Positions 781 through 18,146 are shown, counted from the first letter of the stretch. The stretch: 32,346 nucleotides of DNA from a virus (IMGVR_UViG_3300034018_002494:1-32346), one strand, 5' to 3'. Program-made: numbers and translations. The notes: generated from the sequence alone by a model not told the origin.

Positions 781-1749
781 ATGTATAGTATAAATGATAA
801 ACCTGAATATTTAACTCCAAATTATTTATTAAGTAAAATATCACAAGAAGATGTTTGGAAATACTATACTAATTTAACTCCAGATTCATCAAGTTTATAT
901 ACAAATCCATCAAGACATGATGTAAATGCAGGTTGTAAATTTTTTCAACAATCTGGTTATTGGTGGTTAACTGATTTTGCTAGAAAAAAAGTATATAATT
1001 GCTTCACTATACTTAAAGATATGTATAATATATCTTACCCGAAGGTACTAGACATGGTATATGAAGATTTTTTAGGTAAAGGAAGCGATTATGTAAAATC
1101 AGATTATATATACATACCTAAATTAATTAAAGAAGAAACTATAATTCAATGTAAACTTCAAAAATATACTAAACAAGACATTGATTATCTTAAATCCTTT
1201 TATCTAACCGCAAATATTTGCAAAAGACATAATGTCTATAGTGTAGCAGTGTATTGGATTAATGGTAAACAAGTTTATAGTTATAAAAATAGTGACCCTT
1301 GTTTAGGATATTTAGAAAATGGTAAATGGAAATTATATCATTATAAAAGAAAAGATTTCAGATTTGTGAGCAACATAAATTCTTCAATGTTACAAGGTTT
1401 AGACCAACTTAAATATGAAAGTAATTTATTAATTATAACAAAAAGTAAAAAAGATGTTATGGTTTATGATTTATTAGGATATGAATCAGTTGCTCCACAT
1501 TCTGAAGCTTTATCTAAATGGGAAATGCATTTGCCTCATTTACAAAACAATTACGACCAAATATTAATTAATTTTGACAATGATGAAGCTGGATATATAG
1601 CTTCTGAATCTGTAATTAATAAATATTCAAATTTGATTCCTTTATTTATTCCAATAGAATCAAATCAAAAAGACATTAGTGACTATATAAAGTCATACGG
1701 AATAAATCAAACAATAAATAATTTAAAAAAATGGCTAGAAAAATTATAG
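781..1749 (+). CDS. DnaG-like Toprim DNA primase (crAss-like type)
   Basis: Toprim motifs LIITKSKKDVM and INFDNDEAG, C-terminal KDISDY, degenerate zinc-binding-type N-terminal region (NPSRHD...C...WLTDF). Confidence 0.85.
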   Translation: MYSINDKPEYLTPNYLLSKISQEDVWKYYTNLTPDSSSLYTNPSRHDVNAGCKFFQQSGYWWLTDFARKKVYNCFTILKDMYNISYPKVLDMVYEDFLGKGSDYVKSDYIYIPKLIKEETIIQCKLQKYTKQDIDYLKSFYLTANICKRHNVYSVAVYWINGKQVYSYKNSDPCLGYLENGKWKLYHYKRKDFRFVSNINSSMLQGLDQLKYESNLLIITKSKKDVMVYDLLGYESVAPHSEALSKWEMHLPHLQNNYDQILINFDNDEAGYIASESVINKYSNLIPLFIPIESNQKDISDYIKSYGINQTINNLKKWLEKL

Positions 1750-2135
1750 TTTTTTCAACAAAAACAAACACATCACAAAGTTTAATATCAAGTTCTACAA
1801 CATGGGGAGAACTTAGAGCAGAAATTCCTTCATTATTAAATGAAGATATGGTAGCTACTATTGTAGAAACTAGAAATCAATTAGTATCTATGGAAGCAAT
1901 ACTTCCTGAAGGAGAATTTAAATTAGTTTTAACTCCTGCTAAAACCAAATCTGGTTCTGAATCTATTGATGTAGCTTCAATAATTGCTCGTCTTAAAGAA
2001 AAATTTGACGAAGCTTTTGAAGTTATTTTAGAAGAAATCGAATATGGCGAACACTCATCTGGTTTATCTTCAAATTCATCTGATTCAAATTTAGCAGCAG
2101 AAGCAGCTAAAATTAAAAAAGAATTAGGTTTGTAA
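1731..2135 (+). CDS. Putative ubiquitin-like (beta-grasp) protein precursor with C-terminal extension
   Basis: Residues 1-75 show a beta-beta-alpha-beta-beta pattern (RKIIVF / SQSLIS / TWGELRAEI / MVATIV / LPEGEFKLVLTP) ending KTKSG75, followed by a 59-aa acidic tail. Adjacent to E2-, JAB- and E1-like genes. Confidence 0.6.
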   Translation: MARKIIVFSTKTNTSQSLISSSTTWGELRAEIPSLLNEDMVATIVETRNQLVSMEAILPEGEFKLVLTPAKTKSGSESIDVASIIARLKEKFDEAFEVILEEIEYGEHSSGLSSNSSDSNLAAEAAKIKKELGL

Positions 2136-2143
2136 TTTTATTT

Positions 2144-2180
2144 AAAACTCTCTTGTTGTATTTAACAAGAGAGTTTTTTT
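2144..2180 (+). terminator. Rho-independent terminator
   Basis: Perfect 14-bp stem AAAACTCTCTTGTT / AACAAGAGAGTTTT with a 6-nt loop, running into a T tract, just after the 2135 stop. Confidence 0.8.
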
Positions 2181-2197
2181 ATTTTTAAATTAAAAAA

Positions 2198-3502
2198 ATG
2201 AAAATATTAGTAACTGGAATTACAAAAACTCGCTCTGGTGGTGCACCTGCAACTTTAATATATAAAATATTTGAAAAATTTACATTAATTGATAATTACT
2301 ATAATATTATTGATGATATAACTGATTGTAATTGGTCAATTGATAAAAGAGATGTTATAGTTATAGAAAACAAAATTCCTAAAATAGAATATGACCCTGA
2401 TTGTTATATTGAATCTGAAGAATACTATAATAATGTTTCTGCAACATTTTTAGATAATTTTACATTAAATTCTTATAACAAATTAACAGGAAAAGAACAT
2501 CTTACCGATGAAGAATTCTTTAATAAATATTTAAAAAATAATAAAGGTGATTCTTTTGATTGGAAAATATCAATTAAAAACTTTTTTGGAGATAGAGTAG
2601 ATATACAAAATGATTTTTTTATAGTATATTTTCCAATAAAACATGTTCAAAATAGTTCAGGAAGACAACATACTATTTATGATGTTTATTTAAAAGTAAT
2701 TGTTACTGAAATAAATACTTTTAATAAAAAATATTCACCTTATTTTTATCAATATTTTGAAGAATTTTTAAAAAAAGATAGTTTTGATTCTTGTTTTACA
2801 TTAACAAGTGGAACAAGAACTAGAGTTTCTGATGAAGAATATTCTAGTTTATATAATTTTTCTCATTTTCAAAGAGGATTTGGTGAATGGAAAAACACTT
2901 GTTTAGGTGAAGGATTGTTAAGTGCATACAAAACTATTCCAATTTGTAATGAAGAACATGTTATAAGTTATTGTGTAGCTTTAGAAAATTATCTTTCTTG
3001 GGAATCTTTAGAAGGTGGACCTTATATTAAAATTAGTGATATTAAATCTAATATTGAAAAAGAAACTTTATCTTATTCTGCATTTTATAAAACAATGATA
3101 CCTAGTTTAATATCAAATATGTTTAAAGATTTGATTTTAGATATAAATGAAAATACAATTTTTATAAATTATTCTGCTTTAGATGAAGTTAATTCTTTTT
3201 ATGCTATTAACAAAAATTATATTTCTATAAATAAATTAAATCAAAATGATAAAAATACTAATAGTACTACAAAAACTATTGGAAATGACTTTTTTGTTTT
3301 TAATGAAAAAAAAGTTGGCAAACTTACAATTGATAGTTCTTTAAACAAAACTTCAAGCGAAACAATTTTTTCTGGAGAATTAGATGTATATAAATATCAT
3401 TATTTTCAACTAAAAGATGACTTAATTAATCAAATAAATATTATTATAAATGACAAATCAAACAATTTCCTTGAAAAAAAACCCTTATTCAGAATTAACT
3501 GA
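2198..3502 (+). CDS. Putative E2-like (ubiquitin-conjugating fold) protein
   Basis: Central motif YNFSH223...NTC235LGEG resembles the E2 His...Cys-Leu-Gly active-site region, preceded by beta strands and followed by a helix (YCVALENYLSWES). Located between the Ubl and JAB genes. Confidence 0.5.
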   Translation: MKILVTGITKTRSGGAPATLIYKIFEKFTLIDNYYNIIDDITDCNWSIDKRDVIVIENKIPKIEYDPDCYIESEEYYNNVSATFLDNFTLNSYNKLTGKEHLTDEEFFNKYLKNNKGDSFDWKISIKNFFGDRVDIQNDFFIVYFPIKHVQNSSGRQHTIYDVYLKVIVTEINTFNKKYSPYFYQYFEEFLKKDSFDSCFTLTSGTRTRVSDEEYSSLYNFSHFQRGFGEWKNTCLGEGLLSAYKTIPICNEEHVISYCVALENYLSWESLEGGPYIKISDIKSNIEKETLSYSAFYKTMIPSLISNMFKDLILDINENTIFINYSALDEVNSFYAINKNYISINKLNQNDKNTNSTTKTIGNDFFVFNEKKVGKLTIDSSLNKTSSETIFSGELDVYKYHYFQLKDDLINQINIIINDKSNNFLEKKPLFRIN

Positions 3503-4616
3503 GTTTTCTAAAAAGAAGGGTAAATTAATATTGAGTCAAACTGTAATTGACCAAATTAAGTATTTATGTTCTAAAATGCCATTAGTAGAATGGTCAGGTG
3601 TATTATATCACACTAGTGAAGGTGATTTACAAAATCCAGAACAATTTACATGTAAAGCTGAATATATATTGCTATTAGACAAAGGCACTTCAGGTTATAC
3701 AGAATATGATTTTTCTTCTCCTTCTTTTACAGAAGCTTTGATGGAAAAACCAGAACTTATGGAATGGTCTATGAGCCATATTCATTCACATAACAACATG
3801 GCAGTTTTCTTTAGTGGAACTGACAATGAAGAGCTTACAGACAATGCTCCTAATTACAACTACTACCTTTCGTTAATTGTAAATAACAAAAATGAATATT
3901 GCGCTAGAATTGCATTCATTGGTGAAATTGAAGGTAGGACAATAAAATTTAAAGATAGATATGGAGTAGAACAAATGATAAGTTCACCAAATAAACAAGT
4001 TACATTTTATTATGAAATGGAAATATTTGCTGAAAAATCTAATTTAATTGATGATTTCTTTATTAAACAATACGAAAAAGTAACTGAGGTTAAACCAATA
4101 GAAACTTTTTCTAGATATGGTAACTTTTTCTCAAAAGAAGATTTTGATTATAATGCAAGTTATTCAAAAAATAAACAAAGTCATTACAAACAAGGTAATT
4201 TGTTTAGTGAAAAAAACAAAGAAAGAAGCGAAAATCAATTAACTTGGGATTCTCAAGCTGTAAATTTTATTAAAAGATTAATTGACGTTAATTATGAAAT
4301 AAAAGATATCTCATTATATTTTATTTACAATCAAGATTATTCTTCTCCTTTACATAATTATTTAGACGATTTGATTCCTAAAAATAAAGGACATTTTAAA
4401 AACAATAAAGAAGTTAAAGAGTTTATTGAAGTTAGATTAAATAATGCAGATGAAATATTTGAATATTTTGCAATTAGTTCTGATGATTATGATAATACAA
4501 GTAGCTTAAATGATGTTTGGACGGATTCCGTTAACTTTCTAAAAGTAAGTAGTTTTAAAAATCATCCAACAACAAAATTAATTATAGAGGAAATGGACAA
4601 ATGGGTATGGCAATAA
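3450..4616 (+). CDS. JAB/MPN+ (JAMM) metallo-isopeptidase domain protein
   Basis: Complete JAMM motif: E47 (VEWSG) and H112-S-H114-x7-S122-x2-D125 (HIHSHNNMAVFFSGTD). Confidence 0.88.
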   Translation: MTNQTISLKKNPYSELTEFSKKKGKLILSQTVIDQIKYLCSKMPLVEWSGVLYHTSEGDLQNPEQFTCKAEYILLLDKGTSGYTEYDFSSPSFTEALMEKPELMEWSMSHIHSHNNMAVFFSGTDNEELTDNAPNYNYYLSLIVNNKNEYCARIAFIGEIEGRTIKFKDRYGVEQMISSPNKQVTFYYEMEIFAEKSNLIDDFFIKQYEKVTEVKPIETFSRYGNFFSKEDFDYNASYSKNKQSHYKQGNLFSEKNKERSENQLTWDSQAVNFIKRLIDVNYEIKDISLYFIYNQDYSSPLHNYLDDLIPKNKGHFKNNKEVKEFIEVRLNNADEIFEYFAISSDDYDNTSSLNDVWTDSVNFLKVSSFKNHPTTKLIIEEMDKWVWQ

Positions 4617-5284
4617 AAATAATTAAACAAAGTACAGTAAGATTTTCAGAAGCTTACTTTTACAAACCAAAAGTAGAAGTTTTAGTATTAGGATTAGGGG
4701 GTATTGGCTCATGGCTGACCCTTAATCTTGCTAGACTAGAATGTAATTTACATCTATATGATTATGATTTAATTGATGAAGTAAATTTAGCTGGTCAATT
4801 GTATGCTAATACTGATATTGGAATGAGAAAGCTTGATAGTATTAATAGTTTAGTCAATTTATTATGTGATAAACCTAATATAATTTCTTTAAATGAAAAA
4901 TATACTAATGAAAGTTTTACTGGTCCAATAGTATTTTCTTGTTTTGACAATATGGCTGCAAGAAAATTAGCTTTTGATAAATGGAAAGTTGAAGATGATA
5001 GAGAACTTTTTATTGATGGAAGAATGGCACTTTCAACAGGAGAAGTTTATTGTGTAACAAAAGGAAAAGAAGAAGAGTACGAAAGAACTTTATTTGATGA
5101 TTCTGAAGTTGAAGATGCTGCTTGTAGTATGAAAGCAACTACTTTTAGTGGTATGGCTATTGCAAGTATAATGACAGCGTTATTTTGTAATTATGTAGGT
5201 ACAACTTTAAATCCAGATTTACCAGTTAATTTATCTTTTAAAACAACTTACAATTTTCCGTTAATGATGTTTGAAAGTATATGA
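4601..5284 (+). CDS. ThiF/MoeB/E1-family adenylyltransferase (ubiquitin-activating-like)
   Basis: VLVLGLGGIGS nucleotide-binding loop, LYDYD, NLAGQ, CFDNMAAR, IDGR, and candidate thioester Cys175 (AACSMK). Confidence 0.92.
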   Translation: MGMAIKIIKQSTVRFSEAYFYKPKVEVLVLGLGGIGSWLTLNLARLECNLHLYDYDLIDEVNLAGQLYANTDIGMRKLDSINSLVNLLCDKPNIISLNEKYTNESFTGPIVFSCFDNMAARKLAFDKWKVEDDRELFIDGRMALSTGEVYCVTKGKEEEYERTLFDDSEVEDAACSMKATTFSGMAIASIMTALFCNYVGTTLNPDLPVNLSFKTTYNFPLMMFESI

Positions 5285-6648
5285 AAATTCTTAGAAATAC
5301 TAGAAATTTTAATCCTTTATCTCCTGAAGTAGAAATAGATGTAAAAAGTTTAAATATTATTCCTTTATTTGATATAAATACTTGCAATTTTGATTTAGAA
5401 AAAACTGATTTAAATAGAACACTTCTTAAAAATAATACTGCTGTTAGAATTTTATTTAATAAAAATTTAATTGATTATATTTATTTTTCAAATAATCTAT
5501 TAGAATTTGATTACAAAACATTACAATCAAAATATAAAAATTATAAAGAAAGAATAAAAGAATCAATTTATGGTATTTTTAATAATAAAGTAATTTTACT
5601 TAATACTATTGCTAGTACTAATTTTCAATTTAATGAAAAAGTATATATTAATGTCTTTAATATAAAAAATAATTTTCAATTTAAAGGTAATAATCAAAAT
5701 ATAAAAAATGTTTTTGATAATCTTTTTACAAAAAAAGTAATTAGAAATAATGAAAAATTAGCTATTTATTTTGGTTCTGTTTTTAAAGAAGTTAGTGAAG
5801 GTATATATCCTGTTTTATTATCAGGTATTGATGCAAATAAAATAGATTCTTTTAAATTAAATTTATTATATAATTATATAAATGAACCTACTGATTTTAA
5901 TTCAGTTAAAGTTTATGTAGATAAAGATTGGTATTTACAATCTTGCAATAAATCTTTAAAAACTTATTTTCTAAAAAGTTTAAACGAAAAATATTATAAT
6001 TACGAACTTATATTATTTGACGGTAAAGAATTTGCTAATCAAAATATGTTTTCTTATCAGCCTTTATCATTTTCTACTCTTTCTAAGAAAAAGAAATATT
6101 TTACTGAAATTGAAACTAAACTTTTTGAAAATTTAACAAAAAACTATGTAGATAATTTTGATTATAAAATTTTACAAAAAACATTTTTAGATAAATACAC
6201 TCAATTATTAGAAAATAATAGAAAAGAAAAAGAAAATATTGAAGAAAGTAAACCTGAAATATTAGAAACTAGAAGTTTAACTTCAGAAGAAATGTCTTTA
6301 ATTGATTCGTTATTTCAAAATGATTTTGCAACAGATTTAAGTGAAAGTGAAGGAGAAAATCCTGTAGAAAATATTAATTTTCTTCCAACTGGTATACATT
6401 ATAGTGAACTTACACCTAGTATTCTTACAGACTATATTCGTGATATTACCAATAATAGTACAGAAAATCAAGAAATACCTGTAGAAAATGTTAATTCTTT
6501 TCCAACTGCTATATCTCATCCTGACCTTAATCAAGAAATACCTTCATTTGATTTAGGTTTAGAAGAATCAATTTCTCAAATAGATGAAACATTTACAGAT
6601 TTAGAAGATGAATTACGTAGAATAGCTAATGAAATACAAAATGGATAA
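5281..6648 (+). CDS. Hypothetical protein with acidic low-complexity C-terminus
   Basis: 455-aa ORF coupled to the E1 gene by an ATGA overlap; no recognisable catalytic motif. Confidence 0.7.
   Translation: MKILRNTRNFNPLSPEVEIDVKSLNIIPLFDINTCNFDLEKTDLNRTLLKNNTAVRILFNKNLIDYIYFSNNLLEFDYKTLQSKYKNYKERIKESIYGIFNNKVILLNTIASTNFQFNEKVYINVFNIKNNFQFKGNNQNIKNVFDNLFTKKVIRNNEKLAIYFGSVFKEVSEGIYPVLLSGIDANKIDSFKLNLLYNYINEPTDFNSVKVYVDKDWYLQSCNKSLKTYFLKSLNEKYYNYELILFDGKEFANQNMFSYQPLSFSTLSKKKKYFTEIETKLFENLTKNYVDNFDYKILQKTFLDKYTQLLENNRKEKENIEESKPEILETRSLTSEEMSLIDSLFQNDFATDLSESEGENPVENINFLPTGIHYSELTPSILTDYIRDITNNSTENQEIPVENVNSFPTAISHPDLNQEIPSFDLGLEESISQIDETFTDLEDELRRIANEIQNG
6361..6543 (+). repeat. Intragenic imperfect direct repeats
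   Basis: CCTGTAGAAAATATTAATTTTCTTCCAACTG (6361-6391) vs CCTGTAGAAAATGTTAATTCTTTTCCAACTG (6478-6508); AATCAAGAAATACCT at 6466 and 6529. Confidence 0.8.
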
Positions 6649-7258
6649 AAACTTTAAACATTTATATACGTTAGAAATTCCTAAGTATATAACATCAGTA
6701 CAAACTTCTAAATCGATTAGACCTAAATATTATTCTAATATTGCTGGAATAGGTAGAGTTAATAAATGTCCTAAAAAATTAGAAGGTGCTCAAGTAGACA
6801 GTAAAGGTTTCTATCTTGACAAAGATGGTAATAAAATTATAGCTAATACAAGAAGTGTAGGTAAAGCTAGGCAAGTTCCTATTAATGCTCAAATACTTTA
6901 TGTAGGTAGTACATGGAATAGAGTTGCTATTAAAAATGGATTAGAAGAATTTTTTATAGATTACATTAGAGATATGCCAGTTTTTAATGGTAGTATTGTA
7001 ATGGAATGTGAAATTCATACTATAATAGGACATTCTCAAGCAGATTTGGACAATTTAGGTTATATGTATGGTAAAGTATTAACTGACACTATGGTAAACA
7101 TGGGAAGATTAGTTGATGACAAAGTGCCTTATGTAACTAAACCTTGTTCAGCTCCTTTATTTTATCCTGTTGATTCATTTGATAATAGAAAATTAGTTTA
7201 TCATTTTTATCAAGATGAAAGACCTGAAATATTAAAATTAAATAAAGTAGAAGATTAA
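6629..7258 (+). CDS. RusA-like Holliday junction resolvase (start may be 6641)
   Basis: RusA-type motif ADLDNL...KVLTD...LVDD in the C-terminal half. Confidence 0.7.
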   Translation: MKYKMDKNFKHLYTLEIPKYITSVQTSKSIRPKYYSNIAGIGRVNKCPKKLEGAQVDSKGFYLDKDGNKIIANTRSVGKARQVPINAQILYVGSTWNRVAIKNGLEEFFIDYIRDMPVFNGSIVMECEIHTIIGHSQADLDNLGYMYGKVLTDTMVNMGRLVDDKVPYVTKPCSAPLFYPVDSFDNRKLVYHFYQDERPEILKLNKVED

Positions 7259-7278
7259 TTTCTTCTACTTTATTTTTA
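7240..7278 (+). terminator. Rho-independent terminator-like hairpin
   Basis: Perfect 15-bp stem AAATAAAGTAGAAGA / TCTTCTACTTTATTT with loop TTAATT containing the stop codon, then a T tract. Confidence 0.7.
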
Positions 7279-12617: not shown

Positions 12618-15600
12618 TTATTTGACCTCGTTAATTTCATTTTTGACTATATCATCAAAAAATCTAGAACCTTGTGACCAATATGGAATCATTTGACCTA
12701 CATTCTTTTTTAATTTTTTTTCAATTTTTTCTAAATCTTTTTCATCACTAACAGATATATCTTTTATACTACCTAACAATCTTCCAAATCTTTCAAGAGT
12801 TGAAATAGATGGTGCAGGAGATATTAAAATTTTATGCATATCTGCATAACCAAAACCAGTAAAAAACATCATTTCTGATTTATAACGAGATAAAACTTTT
12901 AATAAATATTTTAATTTTTTTCTTTTTTCTTTATCTTCATCTGACCCAGCAACAGCAGCGTAAAGACCGTATGCTAAAAGAATAATGGATATTTCAGCAA
13001 TAGCTTCTTTAACATTTGCTTTATCCTCATTAGATAAATTTTTCCAATTTAATTTATTAATTGTAACAAATCTAATAAGAGTGTTAAATCTACCTTCTAC
13101 ATATTCACCTAAAACATAATTGTATTTTTTTGATGACCAGTGAGCTTCTAACATTGCAGGAATCCATCCACGATGTTGAGTAATAGCTCTACCTAAAAAA
13201 AACTGTTTAATTTTAATTTTATCGTCAGGATTCATATTACCTAAAGCTCTACCATTAACATGAAGAACTTTTTGTCTAAATGCTTCCTTAACACCTTCAT
13301 CAAGAGAATTTTCTCCAATATATTGTAATTCATCATTTACTACTTTCCAATCATTCCATTTAATAGAATGTTTGTTAGATTTAATCATTGCAATTAAACC
13401 TGCATTTTGCATATGAGATTCAGTTGAAGTCATACCTGACATTGGACCTGGTATGCTAGAAAATGCTTTAAATCCTGTAGAATTTTTTTCTTTTTCTTTA
13501 TCGGAATATTCGCTAGATTGTAACTGAAACATATCAATAAAAAGTCTAGCTTTTCTTGCATCTTCTGTTAAATTAGAAAAAGGACCTAACGATACTACAG
13601 AAGAAGCAAAACTGTAATCTTTAACATCATACCATCTTCCTCCAACTCCCATTAATAATTGCATTGATTTACCACCAAGTAAATTAGTTATAGGAGAATA
13701 CAAATTATAACCTAAATTATTTAATCCTGTGTATCTTAATATAGAATTTAAAAGTTTAACACTTGATATATTTATTTCACTTTTTTCACCCATCATTCCT
13801 AAAGAGTCAAAAACTCTTCCTACAAAACTTTCTTTTTCTACAGTAAATGATGAACCTTCATCTGTAGATTTTCCATAAACAGTAGATTGTATAAAATAAT
13901 CTAAACTATTAATAGTGTTTTCTAAACCTTTTGCTGTTTTAGATAAATTAAAACCTCCTTTTGCTTCTTCTCCTGATGCTGTTAAAATTTGTTCTTTTTG
14001 ATTTAATAAAATATCTCTACCTGTTTCATGTACATGCTCTACAAGAGAAAGTTCATGATAACGCATTGCTGATTCAAAAAATATAGTTAAAGATTTACCT
14101 AAATCATAAGATTTTTCATTTTCTATAAAAGATTTTTTATTTTTAAAAGGAATTTGCATTTTTCCTAAAATAGGTATATTTCTTACATATTTACCTGTAA
14201 AAGGATTTATTTCTAAATAACTATCATCAGAAGTCATACTTATACTATTTACAAGACTTTCTCCTAATTTCATATCTCCTATTCCATTTGTAATTATTCG
14301 CTCTATAAAAGAACGTTTGAATTCTGCAATATAATTTTTACGAATATCAAAAGGAACAAAATCTTCAATAGATTCCATTGTAGAAGTATACATATCATAA
14401 AATTCTTCAACAGGAGTTCCTTTATACTTACCTTCTTTAATTTCTTTCCATTTAGAATCAATCCATTTATCAGTAGGTATATTAAACAACATTATATTAT
14501 TATTGTCTTTAATCCATTTAGCTAAAGCTAAATTATGGTCTTTAGTTACATATTTTTTAGCTTCACTTTCAATAATTTCTTCTTTATATTTTTTAGATTT
14601 TTTAAGACTTTCAATTTTAACTAATAAATCTGCGTTAAATTTATTTTTTAAAAATTCAACATAACTGTTTTTCTTTTTGTTATAAGATTCTGTATCTAAA
14701 ATAGTATTGTTTTTAAACCAATTTAAATCTCCATTCTTTTTAGCATTTTTTCTTTCTTCGTAAAAAACAGATGAATATTTGTCTACAAGATAACCTGTAG
14801 GTTTACCGTTTAAATATTGTAATAAAGGTTCGTATATTTTTTCACCTGTCATTCCCATGTAACTTTCTAAATTTTTAACTGCTTTGTTAATTTTAGAACT
14901 CATTTCAGAAGATTGTTTTCTAGCTTTAGCTATAGCTGTACTTACAGTTTTATATATATAAGCTACTATAGGATTACTAATATAAGAAGCTCCTTTAAAA
15001 TTAGCTTGATATGCATTTATATCTTTTACTGGAGCAAGAACATCTTCAGGAGAAGTAATTATGCTACCTTCAAAAGATAAATCTTTAGCTGCATTGTTAG
15101 CAAAATTTTCTTCAATATTACTATACATTTGTTGATATAATCTTTTAGCTCTACCTTGAATTTTTTCAATTAAATCTGTATTTTCTTTTGTAATATTAAT
15201 AAAAGAACCTATGTTTTCGTACATACTTAAATCTTTTCTAAATTCAATATAGTTATTAATATTTTTATTTTCAGACATAAATACTTCAATAGCAATTAAA
15301 TCTTCCATAATTACACTAAGCATTTCATTATCTTTAACTCCTTTTTGAATACTTTGCATTAATTTTAATTTTGCATCCATTAAAGCATTAATTTTTTCTA
15401 TATTGTTTTTATCTTTTTTATTATCTAACATTTTTATTTGGTTAAATAATTCCCCTAACATTTCGTTTTTTCTTTTATCTAAAGAAGTTTGGTAAATAAC
15501 AGGAGATGTTTCTAGAACTTTAAAAGTAGGTATCCCATCTTTCATATAAGATACTATTTTCATTAACTCTTGGTATTTAATGTTTATTCCTTCTCTTCCT

Positions 15601-18146
15601 AAATTAGGGTCATCATAATCTAATATTTTCTTATAAAGAATTTGTTGTTCAGAATTACCTAATAGTTTTTTATAATTAGATTTAGTAGTACCTTTATTCA
15701 TAGAAGTTTTATAATCTAAAGATTTTATTTCTCCATCTTTAGTTATTTCTAATAAATCTATTGTTCCAGCTATTTTAGTTTTAGTATTAGCAACCATTAA
15801 TTCAGCAGATAACACAGAACCTTGTTTTTTAGCAGCTTCTATAACTGGTTTAATAATAGCTAATATATTATTTCTACTAATATCAGGTAATGTAGATAAA
15901 GAAAATTGTTTATTATCAGGAGCATCTACAAGTTCTATAGTTTTAAAATGTTTATTAAAATCAGGAAAAGCTTCTTTTACAGCATTAGCTGCAATAGCAT
16001 GAAACATGTTTCCTAAAAACTGACTCATTTCTGTATCTTTATTTCCTAAACCAAAAGTTTTTTGTGTTATACTAGTTACCCTTTTATATCCTTTTTCACC
16101 AAGAACTACGTATTCATCTCCTTCTTTACTAATTTTACCAACAGGATTTATTTTATCATAAATTTCCTTTTGATTTTTAGGTTCCACTTTTCTATTAAAA
16201 GCTACTTTATCATTTTTTTGACCACGAGTAAACTCTTTAAATCCTTCTATATCTTGTTTAGAACCTAATATGTGAATTTGTTCTGGTTCAAATACTACAT
16301 ACTCATCAGAACCTAATAAAGAATCATAACCTTTTTCTTTATAAAACTCATATAAAAATGGTCTGTTTGTTAGAGAGATAACTTTATTATTTAAGCTTTC
16401 TTCTCTATCATTTAATTGTTTTAAACTATATCCTCTATTGTCATTTTCGTCTATAAAATCTTGAAAATCTATAAATAAATTTATATCTTCATCTCTTTTA
16501 TCTGTCCTTGCTAGATTATATATATTTAATAAATTTTGACTATTTATAATAACCTGTTTAATATTAGACCCATAAACTTTAGCGTAATTTTTATTTTTAG
16601 TTAAAAAAATACCATTTTCAAATTGTTTTATGAAAGCATCAAAATCTTTATCAGTACCATGATAAACAATATCTTTTACTTTACTATCAGGAAATATAGT
16701 ATCTAAGTATTGAGAGTATAGTTGTAGAGCTTGTTGTTTTTGTTGTGGGGTTATTTGATTATTAATAGATATAAACCCTGTTTCAGTTTTTTTAGCTAAC
16801 CCTTGTTTAATTAAACTATTCCAAACTCTATTAGCTTCATCAGTAGCCATAAAACTTTCTAAAGGTTTATCTGCAATTTGCATAGCAGCTTTATAAGTTT
16901 CTACTCCTAGTCCTTTACCTCTAAATTCTTGTTTAATGTTTACATCACCAATAGATATTGTATCACCTTCTAAGTCAGAAGGAATGTCTATTGTTCCAAT
17001 AGTTTCATTGTTATAAATTATGTTATATGTATCAGCAAACTTCTTTTGTAATATTACTTTAGAAGTTACAGTATTATCAAACCCTAAAGTTTCATATACT
17101 TGATTAGCTAATTCAGGAGTAGAATCAAATAATTCTTGTACTCCTGGTTTAATATTAACAATTTCATTTAAATTAACAACTCCTTGTTTTAAATTAAATA
17201 TGTCAGATAATGTTTGTAAAGAAGTTTCAGCAGATAAAGTAGATAACTTTAATTCTTTTCTACCAAAAACATCTTTTAACATTGTAGTTAAAAAACGTAA
17301 TAATTTTTCTACAGCTTTTTCAAATAAACTACCTGTTTTAAGATTATAATCTTTTTTAGCAAGTATAGTTAATGCACGTACAGCAATTTCTTCAGCTTGT
17401 TCTTCTTTATCGTATTTTAAATCTATTACTTCTTGTAATATTTGTTTTCCTCTATTAGTAGCAAGAATATCAGCTACAATATTTTGAAATAAAGAAGGAT
17501 TATATTTATTTAAGGCTCTCATAAACGGATGACCATATTCATGAATAGCTGAATCTAAATCTAAACCATCTCCATTATCAACAATATATACTTTGTTACC
17601 AAAATAAAATCCAGTTTCATTATTGTAACCATCTCTAGTATTTGATAATAACCCTTTTGCTTCAGCAGGTGATATTATTTGATAATCTACTTTAAATCTA
17701 TTTTTAAGTTTATCAAGTATAGTAATAACCGTTTGATTAGGTAACATATCACCTTCAGTTTTATTAAATAAAGCTAACTGAGAATTATTTCTTTTATCCC
17801 ATAATCTTTTTGCTATAGCAATTACCCATTTTCCAGCAGCATTTAATCTTGCTTCAAAATAATATTCTGGACTATTGTTATTAACAGTAGCCCATTTTTT
17901 AGCAGCAGATTCAGTTAAGTCTTTAATAGTTCCTTCTACATTTAAAAGATTATATTGTTTATATATATCTATATTTTTAGACCAAGGTAAAAAAGGCATA
18001 CCTAAATCTACATGAGTAGGTATTTTGCCTTCATTACCATTGCTTTGCCATACAGCTATTTTAGCAGCAACAGCCGCAGCAGGCAGTCCTGTAATTTCAG
18101 AAAGTTTGGTAACATTGCCGTTATTTTTATTTATACACGTACTCAT
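12618..18146 (-). CDS. Large polyvalent virion/ejection protein: zincin (HExxH), GNAT, ART-like and PD-(D/E)xK nuclease domains, helical C-terminus
   Basis: HEYGH (17529-17543); QEFRGKGLG acetyl-CoA motif (about 16905-16932); VYHGT...GIFLT...EYVVF (about 16260-16670); GNMFH...E...AGTIDLL...LDYKTS (about 15700-16015). Directly follows the RNAP gene. Confidence 0.75.
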   Translation of the reverse strand: MSTCINKNNGNVTKLSEITGLPAAAVAAKIAVWQSNGNEGKIPTHVDLGMPFLPWSKNIDIYKQYNLLNVEGTIKDLTESAAKKWATVNNNSPEYYFEARLNAAGKWVIAIAKRLWDKRNNSQLALFNKTEGDMLPNQTVITILDKLKNRFKVDYQIISPAEAKGLLSNTRDGYNNETGFYFGNKVYIVDNGDGLDLDSAIHEYGHPFMRALNKYNPSLFQNIVADILATNRGKQILQEVIDLKYDKEEQAEEIAVRALTILAKKDYNLKTGSLFEKAVEKLLRFLTTMLKDVFGRKELKLSTLSAETSLQTLSDIFNLKQGVVNLNEIVNIKPGVQELFDSTPELANQVYETLGFDNTVTSKVILQKKFADTYNIIYNNETIGTIDIPSDLEGDTISIGDVNIKQEFRGKGLGVETYKAAMQIADKPLESFMATDEANRVWNSLIKQGLAKKTETGFISINNQITPQQKQQALQLYSQYLDTIFPDSKVKDIVYHGTDKDFDAFIKQFENGIFLTKNKNYAKVYGSNIKQVIINSQNLLNIYNLARTDKRDEDINLFIDFQDFIDENDNRGYSLKQLNDREESLNNKVISLTNRPFLYEFYKEKGYDSLLGSDEYVVFEPEQIHILGSKQDIEGFKEFTRGQKNDKVAFNRKVEPKNQKEIYDKINPVGKISKEGDEYVVLGEKGYKRVTSITQKTFGLGNKDTEMSQFLGNMFHAIAANAVKEAFPDFNKHFKTIELVDAPDNKQFSLSTLPDISRNNILAIIKPVIEAAKKQGSVLSAELMVANTKTKIAGTIDLLEITKDGEIKSLDYKTSMNKGTTKSNYKKLLGNSEQQILYKKILDYDDPNLGREGINIKYQELMKIVSYMKDGIPTFKVLETSPVIYQTSLDKRKNEMLGELFNQIKMLDNKKDKNNIEKINALMDAKLKLMQSIQKGVKDNEMLSVIMEDLIAIEVFMSENKNINNYIEFRKDLSMYENIGSFINITKENTDLIEKIQGRAKRLYQQMYSNIEENFANNAAKDLSFEGSIITSPEDVLAPVKDINAYQANFKGASYISNPIVAYIYKTVSTAIAKARKQSSEMSSKINKAVKNLESYMGMTGEKIYEPLLQYLNGKPTGYLVDKYSSVFYEERKNAKKNGDLNWFKNNTILDTESYNKKKNSYVEFLKNKFNADLLVKIESLKKSKKYKEEIIESEAKKYVTKDHNLALAKWIKDNNNIMLFNIPTDKWIDSKWKEIKEGKYKGTPVEEFYDMYTSTMESIEDFVPFDIRKNYIAEFKRSFIERIITNGIGDMKLGESLVNSISMTSDDSYLEINPFTGKYVRNIPILGKMQIPFKNKKSFIENEKSYDLGKSLTIFFESAMRYHELSLVEHVHETGRDILLNQKEQILTASGEEAKGGFNLSKTAKGLENTINSLDYFIQSTVYGKSTDEGSSFTVEKESFVGRVFDSLGMMGEKSEINISSVKLLNSILRYTGLNNLGYNLYSPITNLLGGKSMQLLMGVGGRWYDVKDYSFASSVVSLGPFSNLTEDARKARLFIDMFQLQSSEYSDKEKEKNSTGFKAFSSIPGPMSGMTSTESHMQNAGLIAMIKSNKHSIKWNDWKVVNDELQYIGENSLDEGVKEAFRQKVLHVNGRALGNMNPDDKIKIKQFFLGRAITQHRGWIPAMLEAHWSSKKYNYVLGEYVEGRFNTLIRFVTINKLNWKNLSNEDKANVKEAIAEISIILLAYGLYAAVAGSDEDKEKRKKLKYLLKVLSRYKSEMMFFTGFGYADMHKILISPAPSISTLERFGRLLGSIKDISVSDEKDLEKIEKKLKKNVGQMIPYWSQGSRFFDDIVKNEINEVK

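Follow-up and report, generated by a model that had tools for sequence, protein, structure and literature searches.

Among the closest described counterparts of the locus considered here are the type I and II Bil operons (BilABCD), by which bacteria ubiquitinate as a defence against phages; in these operons the genes stand in the order Ubl-E2-JAB-E1 and in which, as in the Bub operons, the ubiquitin-like protein (Ubl) is trimmed after a conserved glycine by the system's own JAB protease (10.1101/2023.09.26.559546; PMC11601596). Further bacterial operons, classed as 6a–6e, as well as Ubl/JAB pairs of phage tails, are described in sections of PMC1779556. The locus itself lies in a 32,346-nt virus record (IMGVR_UViG_3300034018_002494:1-32346, around 34% complete), the whole of which is hereafter called the window. 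An initial annotation recognized in it four consecutive co-oriented genes after a primase gene and read them as the phage's own protein-tagging pathway. The arrangement is confirmed and the reading supported: judged by sequence comparison, modelling and analogy, the module is probably a self-contained ubiquitin-like protein-conjugation pathway of crAss-like phages.

The cassette genes lie directly downstream of the primase gene (781..1749, plus strand; PHROG 12622, E 1.7e-31), which overlaps the start of the Ubl gene by 19 nt, and all are on the same strand: an open reading frame (ORF) for a 134-aa pro-Ubl (1731..2135), one for a 434-aa E2-like protein (2198..3502) with SH3-like, UBC-like and C-terminal domains, one for a 388-aa JAB/JAMM metalloprotease (3450..4616; domain at about residues 22–215) and one for a minimal, single-domain E1-like adenylyltransferase of 227 aa (4601..5284). 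There are overlaps at three junctions, and the sole intergenic gap, of 62 nt, lies 3' of the Ubl gene. Scans of IMG/VR confirmed 370 relatives of E1 and at least 543 of JAB, the best 80 of each being used; the resulting set of 161 loci from 155 contigs was chosen by E1 or JAB similarity and thus represents the nearer part of the family. All four genes are present in the order Ubl-E2-JAB-E1 in 154 of these loci, while the other seven are cut by a contig end. Since so many loci share it, the fixed order is not due to chance, and the co-occurrence in relatives that had been proposed as a check holds. Beyond what was first noticed, the comparison brought out an obligate precursor tail, a hairpin, a fifth gene and the presence of the cassette in crAss001.

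Among 50,697 phage records, E1 matches 79 and the JAB domain 74, the matching phages being Bacteroides phages (crAss001, DAC15), Flavobacterium Fpv phages and uncultured gut crAss-like phages. The crAss001 stretch gp79–gp75 (NC_049977; PMC7886860 Suppl. Fig. 2B) holds same-order homologues of the window's four genes as gp79–gp76 after the primase gp80, with gp78 as the E2-like protein, gp77 as JAB and gp76 as E1; the block is equally present in FpV4 and in a rodent-faeces phage. The source is a distant crAss-like phage, since a 3,693-aa protein of the window has matches in 124 records, from crAss-like, Flavobacterium Fpv and Cellulophaga phages.

The first gene of the cassette had been described as encoding a 75-aa beta-grasp domain ending in glycine. 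The fold is strongly predicted by the structure model of residues 1–75 (1731..1955), which is a beta-grasp, whereas the glycine that closes the K-T-K-S-G75 end is internal to the 134-aa frame and is followed by a 59-residue C-terminal extension (1956..2135), whose removal by JAB is predicted. G75 is present in all 135 distinct Ubl homologues and terminal in none, the tails that follow it measuring 1–226 aa; in the pair formed by the window and L005, the tail has a nonsynonymous substitution rate (dN) of 0.118, the Ubl domain one of 0.018. A PDB sequence search with the Ubl profile returned nothing meaningful, and the Pfam candidates Tir_receptor_N and transloc_TIR fell below cut-off and were rejected. 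A Pfam scan of 34 tails gave one match above cut-off. In the locus L030 (2307–2984), the post-glycine tail contains the C-terminal domain of ribosomal protein L7/L12 (PF00542, E 1.9e-14), a fusion that JAB is predicted to split and that is reminiscent of eukaryotic ubiquitin–ribosomal protein precursors. Between the Ubl and E2 genes stands a 15-bp terminator-like hairpin with a U tract (2144..2177, plus strand; -18.5 kcal/mol, z -5.6). Of 125 distinct loci, 96 have such a hairpin 3' of the Ubl stop codon, and a comparable one is rare after E2 (3/125), JAB (5/123) and E1 (3/120). Because of this hairpin, the Ubl may be produced in excess over the enzymes.

The JAMM motif, noted earlier as intact, is so in the form E...H-x-H-x7-S-x2-D (E47, H112, H114, S122, D125): S122 and D125 are kept in 140 of 140 JAB homologues and E47, H112 and H114 in 135–136, the remainder being alignment gaps. 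The window JAB itself has no Pfam JAB match, Prok-JAB PF14464 is matched by 44 of 81 aligned homologues, and the JAB profile gives weak matches to CSN5 and archaeal Rpn11-like proteins (E 0.02–0.5). E1 is the only one of the four window proteins with a direct family match (Pfam ThiF, E 1.5e-19), and its candidate catalytic cysteine, C175 (codon 5123–5125), is present in 127 of 128 distinct homologues; the ATP-site/nucleotide-binding residues are kept as well. Its profile finds UBA5 as the best PDB sequence match (E 1e-12), limited to the nucleotide-binding half, with MccB, TcdA and ThiF nearly equal.

Several loci have these genes in pieces. JAB is split at residues 112–115 in L006, L020, L021, L028 and L081, and E1 at about residue 64 in L006 and L148 and at about 141 in L141 and L162; further split cassette genes occur in L106 and L029, and E2 is also among those interrupted. 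The splits are mostly due to inserts with ORFs of 244–355 aa, often at active-site motifs; going by their motifs, these inserts are putative homing introns. In Fpv1-like records, the JAB query matches at two places. Outside the cassette, a lone JAB (L179:4805-5446; E 4e-11 against the phage JAB profile) occurs on a Heimdallarchaeota contig from which the other cassette genes are absent, and two unrelated 227–229-kb phages, Erwinia Ep032 and Xanthomonas PhiXhv-16, carry a distant ThiF-like gene (29% identity) in records with no match to the JAB query.

The E2-like protein begins with an SH3/KOW-like barrel (residues 1–59; 2198..2374), a candidate targeting domain, and continues into a probable UBC (E2)-fold core (residues 118–285; 2549..3052) marked by Y-x-H/F-S-H223 and C235-x-G (C235 codon 2900–2902). 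Of the H...CLG motif first seen here, H223 is kept in 137 and C235 in 138 of 138 homologues. As in the UBC superfamily, an invariant cysteine comes after the beta-sheet and has a His-containing motif before it; no conserved histidine lies downstream. The structural neighbours of the Cys/His domain are mostly E2/UEV/RWD proteins, by weak matches. Of the earlier E2 call, the conserved Cys235 stands firmly, whereas the UBC fold is weakly indicated by the model. Foldseek with this model gave no PDB match at E <= 0.001 and eight BFVD matches at that threshold, to uncharacterised or unnamed phage proteins; the ESM Atlas offered no usable match for the core and a PDB sequence search with the profile nothing meaningful. 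An hhalign comparison of the core with 4 Prok-E2_B and 10 Prok-E2_D proteins was not significant, and the best local alignment, which places C235 on the Prok-E2_D cysteine (E 0.093), is not counted as support; neither is a complex prediction of two E1 copies with E2 118–420 (score 0.04) used as evidence. The family has no Pfam model; a search of 1.84 billion proteins with its profile yielded 3,411 clusters at 50% identity. In one cassette (L149:3986-6056), the E2-like gene is present twice in tandem (350 and 365 aa).

A further ORF of 455 aa (5281..6648, plus strand) overlaps the E1 stop (ATGA). The gene after E1 starts at most 15 nt from the E1 coding end in 158 of 158 loci, and an iterated profile joins 140 of these 158 ORFs; the window subfamily of nine stays outside, with weak links to the profile (best E 1.3e-4 in one round; hhalign probability 9%). 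It is mainly because of its position that the window ORF5 may be placed in the cassette, of which ORF5 is probably a fifth member and a candidate target adaptor. Residues 1–300 gave only SET-domain clusters at 0.82 in the ESM Atlas, a chance level, and these were rejected.

Over 31 disjoint close pairs, the pooled ratio of nonsynonymous to synonymous rates (dN/dS) is 0.19 for the Ubl domain, 0.13 for that of JAB, 0.15 for that of E1, 0.15 for the primase, 0.31 for E2 and 0.42 for ORF5, and dN exceeds that of the primase in 25 of 31 pairs for E2 and in 27 for ORF5. Ubl, JAB and E1 are hence under purifying selection and as conserved as the primase. In trees of 114 loci, the primase tree reproduces 20 of the 27 E1 splits that have good support and contradicts one; the corresponding figures are 24 of 34 with four conflicts for JAB and 20 of 36 with eight conflicts for E2. 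This agreement implies that the module has mostly been inherited with the replication genes. A scan of 185,579 GTDB genomes with two short JAB patterns, which distant bacterial copies could escape, yielded 15 loci, 14 of them cassette copies in contigs of metagenome-assembled genomes (MAGs) or bins, mostly beside phage replication neighbours, and a bacterial home for the cassette was rejected on this count. In a Bacteroidota MAG, a 374-kb contig (L166; G001:C20) with a complete cassette and a crAss-type replication block may represent a crAss-like phage in integrated form. E2, JAB, E1, ORF5 and UDG also lie on a contig of 640 kb from a Bacilli bin (L167:6075-11535), which may stem from mis-assembly or from the capture of a phage fragment; ahead of its E2, the frame shows a short motif repeated in the manner of a translated repeat array, without a match to an intact Ubl domain.

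With gene order, conservation, invariant residues, tail and hairpin observed and the folds modelled, the chemistry can be envisaged as follows. JAB would cut pro-Ubl after Gly75; E1 would adenylate Gly75 and hold the Ubl on its Cys175; from there the Ubl would pass to Cys235 of the probable E2, which would ligate it to target proteins, with Ubl in excess over the enzymes by virtue of the hairpin, and JAB may also take the tag off. As there is no recognisable E3, the targets might be chosen by the variable SH3-like domain of E2, by ORF5 or by both. Host proteins, tagged while replication is under way, would be the likeliest targets, given that Ubl, JAB and E1 match the primase in conservation whereas E2 and ORF5, the components predicted to contact targets, evolve most rapidly. 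Passages of PMC8375218 class the crAss001 replication genes as middle genes, and action during replication would follow from the position of the cassette among them. Relaxed constraint on E2 and ORF5 would produce an identical pattern. A bolder version, which we advance tentatively and rate somewhat short of even, holds that a complete ubiquitination pathway owned by the virus might be a core module in the beta/Steigviridae group of Crassvirales and in relatives from the environment that number in the thousands. Its E2s would form a new family equipped with a targeting domain, ORF5 would act as an adaptor of E3 type and the tail of the pro-Ubl would be co-expressed cargo, the whole tagging host machinery for takeover in a mirror image of Bil defence.

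Set beside the known systems, the cassette resembles Bil in its gene order, in a Ubl with residues past the conserved glycine, in the cysteines of E1 and E2 and in having no recognisable E3. Unlike Bil, its E1 is a single adenylation domain of 227 aa, without the IAD, the 80-aa CYS domain and the zinc CxxC (found in 0 of 72 E1 proteins), so that the IAD-AAD-CYS layout with a four-Cys zinc site is not seen and the window E1 has no BilD match; its E2 has the histidine before rather than after the cysteine as in the CEHH type, as well as extra N- and C-terminal domains, and three E2 proteins have no PADLOC match; its Ubl tails are as long as 226 aa, where those of type II BilA have at most 9 residues; and it is a phage replication-block module rather than a bacterial defence operon. 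PRTRC, or type 6d (PMC1779556 Table 1), likewise has separate Ubl, JAB, E1 and E2 plus a fast-diverging extra gene, on mobile DNA and in Bacteroidota hosts; in contrast to the cassette, its E2 has the histidine after the cysteine, and no ParB is found among the window ORFs. Of the PRTRC families compared (TIGR03734-42), none is matched above cut-off by any component: the thresholds of ThiF (TIGR03736, 39.5 vs 144.75 bits) and protein A (TIGR03735, 14.6 vs 101.8) are missed, while protein B/Prok-E2_D and protein C/Prok_Ub have no Pfam match in 102 and 95 members and no NCBIfam match for three sets. With UBA5-UFC1-UFM1 there is the likeness of an E1 closest in PDB to UBA5, a minimal homodimeric E1 with a crossover-loop cysteine. 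UFM1, too, has a single glycine and is unmasked from a precursor; the protease of the cassette, unlike that system's, is a JAB. The bacterial E1, E2 and JAB chemistry is shared with type II CBASS (Cap2/Cap3) and Bub operons; unlike the former, the cassette has separate genes and no E2-E1 fusion (Cap2), no CD-NTase family occurs in the window ORFs scanned, and the PADLOC E1-E2 models match just the nucleotide-binding stretch of E1. Unlike Bub (6E), which uses Tyr and Ser, it keeps the cysteines C175 and C235, and DUF6527, a Bub gene, has no match in the window ORFs or tails scanned. The cassette would work like Bil yet departs from it in E1 architecture and E2 motif; it scores under every PRTRC, ThiF and MoeB cut-off and is neither CBASS nor Bub.

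That the same E1-E2 relay places the Ubl on something other than a protein lysine, i.e., phage DNA ends, RNA, a nucleotide or a lipid, in the service of replication, is improbable. It draws on the fixed place of the cassette among primase, UDG and exonuclease genes (primase family in 146 and UDG in 112 of the 154 complete-cassette loci), on the unusual E2-like site with its invariant S-H, E-S-x-x-G-x-P and Arg, on the frequency of KOW/SH3-like barrels in nucleic-acid-binding proteins and on the non-standard chemistry of the bacterial relative Bub (PMC11601596). However, location within a block of phage middle genes says little about the substrate, lysine isopeptides are the product of those Ubl-E2-JAB-E1 operons that have been studied, and no dedicated nucleic-acid enzyme is constantly coupled, the upstream gene varying across loci. 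Held to be just as unlikely is a sulfur-transfer or small-molecule pathway, with the Ubl as a ThiS/MoaD-like thiocarboxylate carrier and the Cys/His protein as the user enzyme, e.g., thiolating a nucleotide. ThiF/MoeB families are indeed the best NCBIfam matches of E1, whose relatives are deposited as 'thiamine biosynthesis protein', but every family match is far under cut-off (49.6 vs 159 bits); MoaD equals ubiquitin by Z for the Ubl model, but the Foldseek matches listed are ubiquitin-type domains; and the E2 fold call is weak, but the Cys/His protein is closer to UBC folds than to a synthase. A JAB can unmask sulfur carriers, according to sections of PMC1779556; against this, no thiazole, molybdenum cofactor (Moco), rhodanese or desulfurase family is found in the 26 window ORFs or the annotated crAss001 stretch; the earlier statement that thiamine and Moco genes are absent stands for the 26 ORFs scanned in a record around 34% complete. 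Less probable still is a counter-defence device, in which JAB strips host Bil/CBASS conjugates or the Ubl with E1/E2 jams host enzymes: Bacteroidota do have Prok-E2_B systems (4/301 genomes) and PRTRC (8/301), and E2 and ORF5 change fast, but such systems are rare in the sampled genomes, a processed Ubl and both cysteines would be needless for a decoy, and no untruncated locus lacks any of the four genes, which for the most part agree with the primase tree, whereas an accessory gene would be patchy. The jamming or reversal of host ubiquitin-like immunity entertained at first is less likely than a self-contained pathway, since a Ubl always comes with the cassette, whose history is largely that of the primase.

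Elsewhere in the window, a second 15-bp hairpin (7240–7275) directly follows a RusA-like gene (6629–7258). On the minus strand (12618–18146), a 1,842-aa protein adjoins the 3,693-aa crAss-type giant protein and has GNAT, ART-PolyVal ADP-ribosyltransferase (E 1.2e-8) and PD-(D/E)XK nuclease domains; judging by these, it is probably an ejected polyvalent protein and a second protein-modifying activity of the phage. A sigma-70 promoter scan (51 sites vs 60.7 expected) was uninformative, and a search for RNA runs containing window 781–6648 listed none.

In the literature, Suppl. Fig. 2B of PMC7886860 shows ThiF, an MPN metalloprotease and three uncharacterised neighbours as beta-group conserved genes; the word 'ubiquitin' is absent from its main text and searched supplements, and 'ThiF' and 'JAB' from its main text. 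The terms ubiquitin, ThiF and JAB are absent from PMC6235969, PMC7824862 has two mentions of ubiquitin, both unrelated, and 'crass' is absent from PMC11601603. No paper describing a crAss-phage conjugation system was found in literature listings, a scope that leaves aside subscription papers and the 2018 crAss-like family paper.

The cassette is thus a real, highly conserved module and likely a phage-borne variant of the Ubl-E2-JAB-E1 systems. As crAss001, DAC15 and the Fpv phages are cultured, the prediction is directly testable. If true, it would assign a role to four or five genes that are conserved among abundant phages of gut and aquatic habitats and at present carry the labels 'thiamine biosynthesis' or 'hypothetical'. 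Bacterial ubiquitin-like conjugation is known experimentally so far as anti-phage defence (CBASS, Bil; Bub by context), and a phage-owned, mostly vertically inherited version would place this chemistry on the side of the virus.
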